A stretch of 40,233 bases of DNA from Escherichia phage vB_EcoP-101118UKE1, in sequence record MZ234021.1. One strand, 5' to 3'. The notes beneath the pieces are model-generated. The model worked only from the letters and a program-made list of their open reading frames with translations, was not told where the DNA came from and made no database searches. The first letter of the stretch is position 1, and each line of letters opens with the position of its first letter. Below are positions 11,381 to 33,435 of the stretch, one piece after another. Position numbers and translations under genes: made by a program.

Positions 11381-11608
11381 ATGAACACAATCACTGGTGC
11401 CATAACCAAAGGTTTTCGAGCAATTTTCGGTGAAACGCAAGAAGTATGCACCAATCATAAATTCGTACTTTCTTGCGTAGCAGGTGACGAGTTTGACGGG
11501 TTCGATAAACTGGTGGTTTGCGACCATTGCGGACAAGAGGCTATCCAACACTCAAACGGTAAATTTGAATTAATAGACGATAGCCTTACAGAAGGAGACG
11601 GCGAGTAA
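11381..11608 (+). CDS. Hypothetical small early protein with four Cys (possible Zn-ribbon), acidic C-terminus
   Basis: 75 aa, GAGGGAAG RBS 11371-11378; cysteines at residues 23, 32, 47 and 50 (including CDHC). Confidence 0.55.
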   Translation: MNTITGAITKGFRAIFGETQEVCTNHKFVLSCVAGDEFDGFDKLVVCDHCGQEAIQHSNGKFELIDDSLTEGDGE

Positions 11609-30080: not shown

Positions 30081-30156
30081 ACACCGTAAGTCCAACTCTA
30101 GGTGAGTCAACTAGACGAGGCAGGTGTTACCTATTAACTACCAAAGGAGAGACTTA

Positions 30157-31041
30157 ATGTCCCAATCAGTTTATGCCGAGTTCGGCGTTAGTCCTAATGC
30201 AATCACTGGTTCCGTTGAGGACCTGAACGAACACCAGAAGTCTATGCTTGAACAGGACGTAGCTGTTCGTGATGGCGATGACGCTATTACCTTCAAGCAA
30301 CTGGAAGCCGAAAACGAAGAGGCGACCGAAGAAGACGAGAACGTCGAAGAGACTGAGGGTGCTGAAGACAACGAGTCCGATGACGAAGAGTCTGAGACCG
30401 ATGGTGAGCAGCCGGAGTTCATCGAACTAGGTGATGCGCCGAAAGAGCTGACCGAAAGTGTCACCGCTCTGGATGAAAACGAAGCTGCATTTGACGACAT
30501 GGTGTCTTCCGCTGTAGAAGCTGGCAAGGTCACTGCTGATGAAATTACCGCTATCAAGGCTGAATACGCCAAGGACGGTAAGCTATCTGACGCATCCTAC
30601 GCTAAGTTGCAGGAAGCAGGTTACACCAAGCGTTTCGTAGATTCGTTTGTACGTGGTCAGGAAGCTCTGGCTGAACAGTATGCTGCTGGTGTGGTTCGCT
30701 ATGCTGGTGGTGCTGAACAGTTTAATCGAATCCTGTCACACCTTGAGTCCAACGACCCGTCAACTCGTGAAGCACTGGAAGCTGCTATCGTTCGTAAGGA
30801 CATTGCGACTACCAAAGCTCTGCTGAATCTTGCTGGAAAGACACTTGGCAAAGCTGTAGGCGTTAAACCTCAGCGTACAATCACCACTCAGGCTAAACCT
30901 GTGGTAGCACCTAAGGCTCCTCAGACCGAAGCATTCAGCTCTAAGGCTGACATGATTAAGGCTATGAGTGACCCGCGATACCTGCGTGACGCTAAGTACA
31001 CGATGGAAGTTCGCGCTAAGGTAGCTGCCTCAAGCCTGTAG
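30157..31041 (+). CDS. Capsid assembly scaffolding protein gp9
   Basis: AAGGAGAG RBS before ATG 30157; acidic, FVRGQEALAEQY and KAMSDPRY motifs as in T7 gp9. Confidence 0.85.
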   Translation: MSQSVYAEFGVSPNAITGSVEDLNEHQKSMLEQDVAVRDGDDAITFKQLEAENEEATEEDENVEETEGAEDNESDDEESETDGEQPEFIELGDAPKELTESVTALDENEAAFDDMVSSAVEAGKVTADEITAIKAEYAKDGKLSDASYAKLQEAGYTKRFVDSFVRGQEALAEQYAAGVVRYAGGAEQFNRILSHLESNDPSTREALEAAIVRKDIATTKALLNLAGKTLGKAVGVKPQRTITTQAKPVVAPKAPQTEAFSSKADMIKAMSDPRYLRDAKYTMEVRAKVAASSL

Positions 31042-31044
31042 TTG

Positions 31045-31067
31045 ACTAAACTATCACTATAGGGAGA
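31045..31067 (+). promoter_or_regulatory. Phage RNAP promoter (phi10-type, major capsid), +1 at 31062
   Basis: ACTAAACTATCACTATA/GGGAGA, the only copy with the full GGGAGA start. Confidence 0.9.
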
Positions 31068-31169
31068 CCAAGAGACAGACTCAAGGTTTCCCTATTACTT
31101 CAGTCCATACGGATTGGGCATACAGTAAGTAATAAACTTTATCTTTCAATTGAATAGGAGAATTATCAT

Positions 31170-32219
31170 ATGGCAAACGTTCCGGGTCAGAAAGTTGGTA
31201 CAGACCAAGGTAAAGGCAAATCTGGTTCCGACGCTCTGGCGTTGTTCCTGAAGGTCTTTGCTGGCGAAGTCCTGACAGCATTCACTCGCCGCTCTGTAAC
31301 TGCTGACAAGCATATTGTCCGTACCATTCAGAACGGTAAGTCTGCTCAGTTCCCGGTCATGGGTCGCACCTCTGGTGTGTATCTGGCTCCGGGTGAGCGA
31401 CTGTCCGATAAGCGTAAAGGTATCAAACATACCGAGAAAGTGATTACCATTGATGGTCTGCTGACTGCCGATGTGATGATTTTCGACATTGAAGACGCGA
31501 TGAACCACTATGACGTGGCTGGCGAGTACTCCAACCAGTTGGGCGAAGCTCTGGCTATCGCTGCCGATGGTGCGGTACTGGCTGAGATGGCTATTCTGTG
31601 TAACCTACCGGCTGCATCTGATGAAAACATCGCTGGTCTTGGCAAAGCGTCTGTGCTGGAAGTTGGTACTAAAGCAGACCTGAACACTCCGGCTAAGCTG
31701 GGTGAAGCAATCATCGGTCAACTGACCATTGCTCGTGCGAAGCTGACATCCAACTACGTTCCTGCTGGCGACCGTTACTTCTACACCACGCCGGACAACT
31801 ACTCTGCAATCCTCGCGGCTCTGATGCCGAACGCTGCTAACTATGCTGCGCTGATTGACCCAGAGACTGGTAACATCCGTAACGTAATGGGCTTCGTGGT
31901 TGTTGAAGTTCCACACTTGACTCAGGGTGGTGCTGGGGAAACTCGTGGTGCCGATGGTATCGCTATTGCGACTGGTCAGAAGCACGCCTTCCCAGCTACT
32001 GCTACTGGTGATGTTAAAGTTGCTCTGGACAACGTTGTGGGCCTGTTCTCTCACCGTTCTGCTGTAGGTACTGTTAAGCTGCGTGACTTGGCGCTGGAAC
32101 GTGACCGTGACGTCGATGCTCAGGGCGACCTGATTGTTGGTAAGTACGCTATGGGTCACGGTGGTCTGCGTCCAGAAGCAGCAGGCGCACTGGTTTTCAC
32201 AGCGGCGTCAGCGGGTTAA
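31170..32219 (+). CDS. Major capsid protein gp10A
   Basis: 349 aa; FLKVF.GEVLTAF, KHTEKVITIDGLLTADV, YAALIDPE, HRSAVGTVKLRDLALER match T7 gp10. Confidence 0.97.
   Translation: MANVPGQKVGTDQGKGKSGSDALALFLKVFAGEVLTAFTRRSVTADKHIVRTIQNGKSAQFPVMGRTSGVYLAPGERLSDKRKGIKHTEKVITIDGLLTADVMIFDIEDAMNHYDVAGEYSNQLGEALAIAADGAVLAEMAILCNLPAASDENIAGLGKASVLEVGTKADLNTPAKLGEAIIGQLTIARAKLTSNYVPAGDRYFYTTPDNYSAILAALMPNAANYAALIDPETGNIRNVMGFVVVEVPHLTQGGAGETRGADGIAIATGQKHAFPATATGDVKVALDNVVGLFSHRSAVGTVKLRDLALERDRDVDAQGDLIVGKYAMGHGGLRPEAAGALVFTAASAG
32192..32198 (+). promoter_or_regulatory. Putative -1 programmed ribosomal frameshift site in capsid gene
   Basis: G GTT TTC heptamer eight codons before the 10A stop, same motif and position as in T7 gene 10; -1 frame open to 32482. 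Confidence 0.5.
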
Positions 32220-32482
32220 CGACCTTTAAGGCCCTCTCTACAGAGGGTCCTACCTTAGAGACGTATAGTTCTACGGTGGGAACCAGCCTGAAGGTTGACT
32301 TCCCTGAGCTTTCAGATGTGACCGATTGGTCGCTGCTTGAGGTGACTACGCCTGATGGTGTTAGCTACTCCCGTAGAACCAACAGTCTCTACTTCAAGGC
32401 CACCTCTGGCGTGGAAGGTCTGGTGATTGTTGGGTATGACGGGACGCCTGTGCGTTCCTTCAACGTATCTTTCACAAACTAA
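32198..32482 (+). CDS. C-terminal extension of minor capsid protein gp10B, reached by -1 frameshift from gene 10A
   Basis: -1 frame is open from 32144 to stop at 32482; conserved GGTTTTC heptamer 32192-32198 as at the T7 10A/10B shift site. Confidence 0.55.
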   Translation, partial: HSGVSGLTTFKALSTEGPTLETYSSTVGTSLKVDFPELSDVTDWSLLEVTTPDGVSYSRRTNSLYFKATSGVEGLVIVGYDGTPVRSFNVSFTN

Positions 32483-32488
32483 TTGAAA

Positions 32489-32526
32489 CCCCTTGGGTGC
32501 CTTCGGGTGCTTGAGGGGTTTTTTTT
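32489..32526 (+). terminator. Tphi-like late terminator after capsid gene
   Basis: CCCCTTGGGTGC-CTTCGG-GTGCTTGAGGGG stem-loop followed by TTTTTTTT, closely resembling T7 Tphi. Confidence 0.9.
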
Positions 32527-32540
32527 CTTAAGGAGGGACT

Positions 32541-32630
32541 ATGGTCCTTATTTACACAGGGTTAGCACTATTCGTCTTATTCTGGGCGTACCTGCTGTCC
32601 AGCTCACCGTCTAGCGCCTATGACCGTTAA
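32541..32630 (+). CDS. Possible small hydrophobic peptide (29 aa)
   Basis: AGGAGGG 32531-32537 just after Tphi; MVLIYTGLALFVLFWAYLL; may be non-coding. Confidence 0.25.
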   Translation: MVLIYTGLALFVLFWAYLLSSSPSSAYDR

Positions 32631-32641
32631 GGAGTAAACCT

Positions 32642-33208
32642 ATGGCTCAATACATTCCACTGAATGCTAACGATGACTTAGATGCCATCAACGATATGTT
32701 AGCAGCTATCGGTGAACCAGCAGTCCTACAGCTTGACGAAGGTAACGCTGACGTCTCGAACGCTCAACGTATCCTGCATCGTGTCAATCGTCAGGTCCAA
32801 GCTAAAGGCTGGAACTTTAACATCAACGAAGCTGCTGTCCTGACACCTGATGTCCAAGACAATAGGATTCGATTCCTGCCGTCTTACCTTCGGGTCATGA
32901 CTGCTGGTGCTACCAGTTACTACAGCAACATGGGGGGCTATCTCTATGACCTGTCCACTCAGTCCACGACCTTCACTGGACCAATTACAGTCGAACTGGT
33001 GGAGATGAAACCGTTCGCTGAGATGCCTGTAGTATTCCGTGACTACATCGTTACCAAGGCCAGCCGTGAGTTCAACGCTAAGTTCTTCGGTAGCCCAGAG
33101 TCTGAACTGTACCTTCGTGAGCAGGAAGCAGAACTCTATCAGCAGGTCATGGAATACGAGATGGATACTGGTCGCTACAACATGATGTCAGACATCGGGA
33201 GGGACTAA
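32642..33208 (+). CDS. Tail tubular protein A (gp11)
   Basis: AAGGAG RBS; INDMLAAIGEP, GWNFNINEA, YEMD motifs as in T7 gp11. Confidence 0.92.
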   Translation: MAQYIPLNANDDLDAINDMLAAIGEPAVLQLDEGNADVSNAQRILHRVNRQVQAKGWNFNINEAAVLTPDVQDNRIRFLPSYLRVMTAGATSYYSNMGGYLYDLSTQSTTFTGPITVELVEMKPFAEMPVVFRDYIVTKASREFNAKFFGSPESELYLREQEAELYQQVMEYEMDTGRYNMMSDIGRD

Positions 33209-33435
33209 TGGCTAGTCACAACCTGAAGATTCACCGCCAGCACTTTGGTCTGGTACAACTAGGTCTAAAGACAGCAGAGCTGAGACTTAACGACCGGGAC
33301 TTTAAGGTTGGCGACTGGCTTATCCTGAATGAGTGGGACAACGGGTATACTGGACAACAGGTAGCGCGTAAGGTTGTCCACATTGCTGACGTTGGTGAGA
33401 TCGCTGAGGGATATGTCCTAATGAGTATGATTTAA
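33208..33435 (+). CDS. Small ASCH/PUA-like protein (DUF3850-like?), inserted between gp11 and gp12
   Basis: GGGAGGG RBS, TAATG overlap with gp11 stop; LKIHRQHF...KTAELRLNDRDFKVGDWLIL pattern. Confidence 0.55.
   Translation: MASHNLKIHRQHFGLVQLGLKTAELRLNDRDFKVGDWLILNEWDNGYTGQQVARKVVHIADVGEIAEGYVLMSMI

Follow-up and report, generated by a model that had tools for sequence, protein, structure and literature searches.

Elements of the T7-group gene 10 frameshift and a predicted Ig-like capsid extension in a K1F-like Escherichia phage

Gene 10 and the -1 reading frame at its 3' end

The window analysed here is the whole 40,233-nucleotide stretch of Escherichia phage vB_EcoP-101118UKE1 (sequence record MZ234021.1). 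Over 31100-32560 it matches Escherichia phage vB_EcoP-101136BS1 at 99.9% identity, and many further Kayfunavirus (K1F-like, Studiervirinae) genomes at 98-99%; by sequence, the window can be placed in Kayfunavirus as a K1F-like relative of T7. The gene order around gene 10 matches that of T7, with the following features:

30124-31041: scaffold gene 9
31050..31067, + strand: phage RNA polymerase promoter 5' of gene 10 (phi10 equivalent), a perfect fit to the window's promoter consensus ACTATCACTATAGGGAGA
31170..32219, + strand: gene 10A, major capsid protein, 349 aa (ATG 31170, TAA 32217-32219; Pfam Gp10A-like, E 6e-105)
32144..32482, + strand: open -1 frame (preceding TAA 32141-32143, closing TAA 32480-32482)
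32192..32198, + strand: slippery heptamer G GTT TTC (V342 F343), the -1 shift site, in phase
32485..32526, + strand: Tphi-like intrinsic terminator (17-bp stem 32485-32522, UUCG loop, T8 run)
32642-33208: tail tube gene 11 (Pfam Tube)

The promoter consensus occurs at seven sites in the window versus 0.03 expected, and phi10 is annotated at the equivalent position in K11, T7 and T3. Relatives of the 10A protein carry the annotation 'major capsid', and the terminator core AACCCCTTGGG...GAGGGGTTTTTT is common to the window, T7, K1F and K11.

An earlier note on this DNA had proposed that a -1 frameshift at the end of gene 10A yields an extended minor capsid protein. Direct reading of the sequence bears out most of the anatomy on which that proposal was built: the -1 frame is open over the whole of 32144-32482, the heptamer lies at 32192-32198 with GTT (32193-32195) and TTC (32196-32198) as its 0-frame codons, and the Tphi-like stem begins just 2 nt past the stop codon of the extended product, 10B. 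The slip site had also been described as that of T7 in both motif and position. The motif is indeed the same; the position is the same only approximately, because six sense codons separate slip site and stop here as against three (KVE) in T7. The GTT codon is accordingly the eighth before the 10A stop, and the six codons between TTC and the TAA read TAASAG.

The 10B-specific reading starts at 32198 (CAC = H) and ends at the TAA at 32480-32482. It would add 94 new residues after F343 (HSGVSGLTTFKALSTEGP...SFNVSFTN), close to the earlier figure of about 95, and the predicted 10B protein has 437 aa, 88 aa more than 10A. Its predicted junction peptide is YAMGHGGLRPEAAGALVFHSGVSGLTTFK, and the peptides within the predicted tail include ALSTEGPTLETYSSTVGTSLK, VDFPELSDVTDWSLLEVTTPDGVSYSR, TNSLYFK, ATSGVEGLVIVGYDGTPVR and SFNVSFTN. 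Taken alone, the heptamer is unremarkable: GGTTTTC occurs twice in the window versus 4.1 copies expected, the second copy, at 11411, being out of phase. An 86-codon stop-free stretch like that of the -1 frame is reached in 2.3% of shuffles. The significance of the site rests instead on its phase, position, conservation and coding signature, so that it is the comparative evidence that carries the case.

Coding signature of the -1 frame and conservation of the slip site

For the region 3' of the 10A stop, a comparison of 14 distinct sequences from the clade of the window gave a pN/pS of 0.167 in the -1 frame versus 1.25 and 2.21 in the two remaining ones. Of the 87 variable columns, 19, 14 and 54 fall at codon positions 1, 2 and 3, respectively, of the -1 frame. 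These figures indicate that purifying selection acts specifically in the -1 frame and that the tail is real coding sequence. A TBLASTN search with the 96-aa translation of the tail matched 454 phage records: Kayfunavirus-like phages infecting Escherichia, Salmonella and Enterobacter are 75-100% identical to it, and Klebsiella Przondovirus (K11, KP32), Citrobacter phage CR8 and Pectobacterium phages 40-50%; the genera covered include Kayfunavirus, Przondovirus and Caroctavirus. Residues that are invariant across these groups, all present here, are G30, S32, K34, L40, T44, W46, S47, R61, R62, L66, Y67, K69, G84 and F90, and the invariant motifs are VTDWS, RRxxxLYxK (RRTNSLYFK in the window) and DG.

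The slip site was compared at 77 loci, a set that includes some redundant loci and that grows to about 90 related loci with metagenomes. It reads GGTTTTC in 73 of them, AGTTTTC in two and CGTTTTC in two; it is always in phase and stands 3-6 codons before the 10A stop. The heptamer is identical in T7, K1F, K11, KP32 and CR8, and GGTTTTC also recurs in nearly all metagenome relatives. The metagenome scan provided two informative slip-site variants, with little diversity in the invariant RNA segments. Both come from divergent relatives that have kept the tail: one (L104) has G GTA AAG (valine-lysine) at the equivalent place, and the other (L105) has ACT TTT A at the slip position, where the A-site UUU re-pairs to UUU. 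All of these variants (A/C GTTTTC, G GTA AAG and ACT TTT A) allow A-site re-pairing. If frameshifting itself were not selected, it would be hard to explain why one slippery motif has given way to another at a constant position.

The same comparison bears on whether the downstream ORF might be a separate small gene of 68 aa (GTG 32276 to 32482) with its own translation start. Gene callers do list this ORF, separate CDSs are annotated in many records (e.g., U8, phi1_146013 and KP32), and PHROG 7473 was built from such separate-gene calls, with versions of 64-87 aa present in the protein database. However, the called starts vary by lineage over this same range, while in every case the -1 frame has no stop codon on the way back to the slip site, and a site that changes among relatives yet stays slippery is not what a separate gene predicts. 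Moreover, GTG 32276 is preceded by no Shine-Dalgarno sequence (TACCTTAGAGACGTATAGTTCTACG), and both conserved residues and the first predicted beta-strand (residues 24-28 of the AlphaFold2 model described below) stand 5' of it. In the GenBank record of CR8, whose tail is homologous, mass-spectrometry matches are annotated on the joined 10B CDS. We consider an independent start highly unlikely.

Alternatively, the phage RNA polymerase might generate the long form by slipping during transcription, given that the site contains a run of four Ts and a 1-nt deletion there in the mRNA would give an identical protein. Polymerase slippage requires homopolymer runs longer than 4 nt, which counts against this route, and what the relatives retain are slippery motifs tied to the codon phase (G GTA AAG, CCC AAA G), not long runs. 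The T7 case is regarded as ribosomal in the literature (PMC5009743), and for the window too slippage of the polymerase is hardly credible. That the open -1 frame arose by chance or survives as a relic, with no extended product, has a practically negligible probability: it would fit the heptamer count, the frequency of equally long open stretches in shuffles and the existence of one truncated relative, but not the strong frame-specific signature of purifying selection, the protein-level conservation across genera or the confident predicted fold.

Ribosomal frameshifting is thus the reading that we adopt. The heptamer, the -1 ORF reaching to Tphi, the coding constraint and the conserved slipperiness of the T7 gene 10A/10B arrangement are all present in the window, which supports the central proposal of the earlier note, and judged on these sequence-level features, the site belongs among the programmed -1 frameshifts of gene 10 in the T7 group.

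The C-terminal extension and its counterparts in the T7 group

The tail of the predicted 10B protein falls into two parts:

32199..32254, + strand: linker of the 10B tail (HSGVSGLTTFKALSTEGP...), predicted to be disordered; overlaps the end of 10A, stop codon included
32255..32479, + strand: Ig-like beta-sandwich of 10B, ~75 aa, a predicted fold with the motifs VTDWS, RRTNSLYFK and DG

An AlphaFold2 model of the 96-aa tail translation, built with 39 homologues, had a mean pLDDT of 81.6. Residues 1-16 fall below 50, the disordered linker extending to about residue 20, and residues 21-96 form a seven-strand beta-sandwich at pLDDT 87-93. When this model was searched against the PDB with Foldseek, the top match was the C-terminal Ig-like domain of the lambda tail tube protein gpV (2l04, E 8.7e-4), and a fold search of BFVD recovered the 'minor capsid protein' of PP81 (E 1e-8) followed by phage proteins with BIG2 domains. 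The matches from the fold searches comprise the lambda gpV Ig-like, filamin, Big_2 and S-layer Ig domains, and the tail is predicted to adopt an Ig-like beta-sandwich fold. At the sequence level, a Pfam search with the tail matched no family, including the recognized Ig families (Big_2, I-set, FN3); a sequence-profile search of the PDB gave nothing below E 0.05; and a direct HHALIGN comparison with the Big_2 tail of T3 found no relation (probability 0.1%). The sole library match was PHROG 7473 ('unknown function', E 7e-37). By this profile match the tail is assigned to the family of CR8/KP32-type minor capsid extensions (PHROG 7473), and it lies outside the recognized Pfam Ig families despite its predicted Ig-like fold.

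The predicted domain resembles the decoration domains of the lambda gpV class in its small size, its beta-sandwich fold and its place at the C-terminus of a virion protein. Ig-like decoration domains of phages are often produced by frameshifting (PMC5009743). The tail differs from that class in that it lies beyond the recognized Pfam Ig families. One relative in our set (L014/L032) has lost the distal half of the tail domain together with part of Tphi; the domain may be dispensable, given this loss.

Within the T7 group, the resemblance to T7 itself is closest at the level of arrangement: in both phages an in-phase G GTT TTC precedes the 10A stop by a few codons, both have a -1 ORF that ends just before Tphi, and the upstream capsid sequences are homologous. 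In T7, G_GU constitutes the X_XX part of the heptamer (Atkins 2016 review, PMC5009743). The extensions themselves differ. The T7 tail has 56 residues, is low-complexity or helical and lacks a Pfam match, whereas that of the window has 94 with a predicted Ig-like domain; the two are alike only in the first ~4 residues after the shift (HSGV here versus QSGV), and the T7 tail has been described as not Ig-like (PMC5009743). K1F, the type species of the genus, has DNA nearly identical to the window through GGTTTTCA and again from AACTAATTGAAACCCC (stop and terminator), but between these points it has a short T7-type tail of about 48 post-shift residues (...TLTPQQKAARTRAAN...), the window having a different cassette. 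Aligned with the T7/K1F tail (...TLTP-Q-AARTRAAN...), the window matches as far as GGTTTTCA and then again from the stop and terminator, with no homology detected in between.

CR8, K11/KP32 and PP47/PP81 have homologous tails (40-50% identity) with the motifs VTDWS, RRTN-LYFK and DG, the same slip site and a stop equally placed before Tphi; they differ from the window in genus, in their linkers and in the sequence of the stem-loop described below. T3 and phiYeO3-12 differ further, with the slip site CCC AAA G (lysyl) and a tail that matches Pfam Big_2 (E 5e-10). Judging from these alignments, at least three unrelated tails are found on one capsid gene in the T7 group, namely the Big_2 tail of T3, the short tail of T7 and K1F, and the Ig-like tail of the window. 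Since the window and K1F, in the same genus, are nearly identical outside the slip site and Tphi and wholly different between them, the tail would appear to behave as an exchangeable cassette bounded by these two elements.

On this evidence, we put at roughly 90% the probability that gene 10 of this Kayfunavirus yields both 10A and 10B through a -1 slip at G GTT TTC, and that the tail of 10B is an Ig-like module. A single gene 10 mRNA would then give rise to two capsid proteins. Most ribosomes would stay in frame through G GUU UUC and terminate after six further codons, producing 10A (349 aa), while a minority would slip by -1 at the heptamer. In these, the A-site tRNA-Phe would exchange UUC for UUU, and the P-site tRNA-Val would exchange GUU for an imperfect pairing with GGU. 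The slipped ribosomes would go on to read CAC AGC GGC... up to the TAA at 32480-32482, producing 10B (437 aa), which would consist of the capsid shell domain, a flexible linker of ~20 aa and the C-terminal Ig-like beta-sandwich of ~75 aa. Co-assembly of 10B with 10A would place the Ig-like domain on the exterior of the head in a fixed minority of the capsid subunits, and its probable function there, we infer, is that of a weak adhesin or decoration.

Production of the 10B protein has been shown in relatives only (K1F, CR8, Kvp1 and T7), by analogy with which it may be expected here. A K1F gene10b-GFP fusion made through the frameshift gave fluorescent virions (PMC6277420), and 10B peptides of Kvp1, with the slip at TTTTCA, were found by mass spectrometry (PMC2579914). 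The efficiency of the slip may likewise be comparable to that of T7, about 10%.

The feature itself is not new: frameshifting in gene 10 is textbook material, near-identical phages are annotated thus, and the mechanism has been used for display in K1F. It consequently has little weight as a discovery, its practical value lying in annotation, in display and in the search for the stimulator. Among the annotations, GenBank MK903279 (Peacock, 98.4% identical) has a joined minor capsid CDS, whereas most GenBank records call the distal tail a 'hypothetical protein' from GTG 32276 or from lineage-specific starts. The best match (99.9% identical) also splits off the tail as a 'hypothetical protein', and several tails of the CR8/K11/KP32/Pectobacterium type have been annotated as a separate gene (PMC7693777). 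The correct annotation is a joined 10B CDS. Our analysis establishes the anatomy of the site, the coding constraint, the conservation of slipperiness and the predicted fold; what it adds to the known picture is modest and comprises an assigned fold, the limits of the cassette, the replacement of slip-site motifs in relatives, a stem-loop that is conserved and covaries at a non-canonical spacing, and the widespread mis-annotation of the tail. The tail would be a natural Ig-like display module at the very locus that engineers use in T7 and K1F phage display, the gene10b fusions of K1F including adhesins (PMC13370021).

RNA structures 3' of the slip site

In a reporter, the heptamer alone gave less than 1% shifting, against about 10% in native T7, and hence a stimulator is needed (PMC1635266). 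The T7 shift requires sequence more than 200 nt downstream, including a CCCC in Tphi (PMC5009743). CCCC is also present in the Tphi of the window. Lineages with unlike tails and the same slip site are good material for finding this stimulator, and we compared their RNA structures with those of the window, where the elements are:

32224..32260, + strand: conserved stem-loop (8-bp core 32230-32237 / 32242-32249, loop CUAC)
32205..32216, + strand: 5' strand of a candidate long-range helix, beginning 6 nt past the heptamer
32398..32414, + strand: 3' strand of the candidate long-range helix, in the KATSGV codons after the conserved LYF motif

The stem-loop corresponds to the hairpin-like element noticed earlier at ~32229-32250, which is thereby found to be real. 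It has a dG of -15.3 and a z of -2.5 (3/200 shuffles fold as well), and it is kept in 17 close relatives. The canonical spacing of a stimulator is 5-9 nt, at which the structure meets the mRNA entrance of a ribosome positioned on the slip site. Here the spacer from the heptamer is 25 nt to the extended form and 31 nt to the core, and the stem-loop is therefore too distant to be a canonical stimulator; in T7 a stem-loop stands 13 nt downstream. Stem-loops of other sequence are found in K11-type loci at 21-30 nt (dG -22, z -6.0) and, with a UUCG loop, in CR8-type loci at 22-28 nt (dG -18, z -6.2). In 32 sequences of the K11 type, the 9-bp core is paired in 98.3% of cells and two of its pairs covary (A-U/G-C in 11 sequences and C-G/U-A in 9, with G-U intermediates), a degree of covariation matched by 0/500 shuffles; the covarying changes also change amino acids of the linker. 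Since the K11-type core is thus paired and covaries beyond shuffles, the conserved stem-loop has some real role.

Several other candidates were set aside. Placement of the stem-loop relative to the 10A stop was rejected, as the distance from stop to hairpin varies between 3 and 10 nt among lineages and that from slip site to hairpin is steadier. A large local structure proposed by RNAalifold for the window's clade (32204-32310) is almost without informative variation, and its basal helix breaks in the most divergent member (L013). For an upstream Shine-Dalgarno-like stimulator, inspection by eye found no conserved element at 10-14 nt spacing; the AGGAG of Peacock, just 4 nt 5' of the slip site, is not conserved. 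An Rfam search of 32100-32650 gave sub-threshold chance matches only.

A further idea, which we regard as improbable and offer as a candidate lead, is that the stem-loop might be the tip of a larger structure whose long-range base helix stimulates frameshifting throughout the T7 group. This base would pair the 25-30 nt 3' of the slip site, beginning 6-7 nt past the heptamer, with codons in and just after LYFK, ~200 nt on; if true, it would explain why T7 needs sequence lying over 200 nt 3' of its shift site, a long-standing puzzle. In the window, RNAduplex pairs 32205-32216 with 32402-32412 at a dG of -22.3. Compared with 200 dinucleotide shuffles of the proximal segment, the duplex energies of the long-range helix are not significant (z +1.0 to -1.8). 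Tail codons 60-76 have variable third positions in 0/16 cases in the window's clade versus 28/80 elsewhere in the tail (P 0.002, a post hoc comparison). Covariation of the long-range pairs in the window group amounts to two double changes, both in L013, of ~4-5 pairs changed on both sides, which is at chance level. A matrix of cognate versus non-cognate energies favours the cognate pairing in the CR8-type and K11-type groups but not in that of the window.

RNAalifold of the K11-type sequences pairs columns 14-33, beginning 6 nt past the heptamer, with columns 211-228 in the LYFKGIAVG codons; all cells of this pairing are paired, one pair covaries, and it is kept in divergent metagenome relatives. 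In CR8-type phages, a 17-bp long-range counterpart is possible at homologous codons. The codons at the proposed distal strand are LYFKG(I/S).. in the K11 and CR8 groups and KATSGV in the window.

Exchange and partial deletion of the capsid tail

To examine the -1-frame extension of the capsid protein 10B (hereafter the tail), we compared window 32199-32479 with the corresponding segment of phage K1F (L020 2166-2305), a member of the same genus. The features of this region are:

32192-32198, slip site G GTT TTC
32199-32479, tail with a predicted Ig-like domain
32485-32526, Tphi-like intrinsic terminator (Tphi)
32541-32630 (+), 29-aa hydrophobic ORF (MVLIYTGLALFVLFWAYLLSSSPSSAYDR) between Tphi and gene 11
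32642-33208, gene 11 (tail tube)
33208-33435 (+), 75-aa ORF between the tail tube genes 11 and 12

The two phages are nearly identical through GGTTTTCA, and this near-identity resumes from AACTAATTGAAACCCC; between these points the window codes for the Ig-like tail, whereas K1F has an unrelated, T7-like short tail. Read from these sequences, the tail is a swapped cassette bounded precisely by the slip site and the terminator.

A natural deletion, located ~165 nt 3' of the slip site, is seen in the relative L014/L032 (IMGVR_UViG_2974604219_000001), where it has removed the downstream half of the Ig-like tail together with the 5' arm of Tphi; the -1 frame there continues into the counterpart of the hydrophobic 29-aa ORF (...EVTTPEWFFLLKVRMIMFYLLTALGLFVSFWAIILLTGPCSPYDR). 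Provided that the assembly is correct, this deletion suggests that the Ig-like domain and Tphi are dispensable.

Variation at the slip site and within the tail

In two divergent relatives that keep the tail, G GTT TTC is replaced at the same position by other slippery sequences, namely G GTA AAG (L104) and ACT TTT A (L105). Variants of the heptamer itself are A GTT TTC (L015/L038) and C GTT TTC (L074/L078).

Within one set of close relatives, the tail has about half the synonymous-site variation of 10A (0.29 vs 0.57), and third-position variation falls to zero across a 17-codon stretch of the tail (SRRTNSLYFKATSGVEG; region 32377-32419). The low synonymous variation could reflect either an RNA-level constraint or a recent spread of the cassette.

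Small ORFs flanking gene 11

The 29-aa ORF is preceded by a strong ribosome-binding site (AAGGAGG), and its stop codon overlaps the ribosome-binding site of gene 11. It is labelled hypothetical in the annotation of relatives, has no counterpart at the same place in T7, and a Pfam search with it gave no match. The 75-aa ORF matches the Pfam families DUF3850 (E 1e-19) and ASCH (E 7e-7); its counterpart in EV136_1 is annotated as DUF3850, whereas the T7 record is without such an ORF at the corresponding position.

Phage promoters and layout of the record

With gene 10 situated ~31 kb into the 40-kb window, the record appears circularly permuted with respect to the T7 map. A scan of the window that allowed up to 3 mismatches to the promoter consensus ACTATCACTATAGGGAGA recovered seven sites against 0.03 expected, all on the (+) strand (3304, 8972, 15704, 27224, 30063, 31050 and 35832), of which only the promoter ahead of gene 10 (31050) matches the consensus perfectly.
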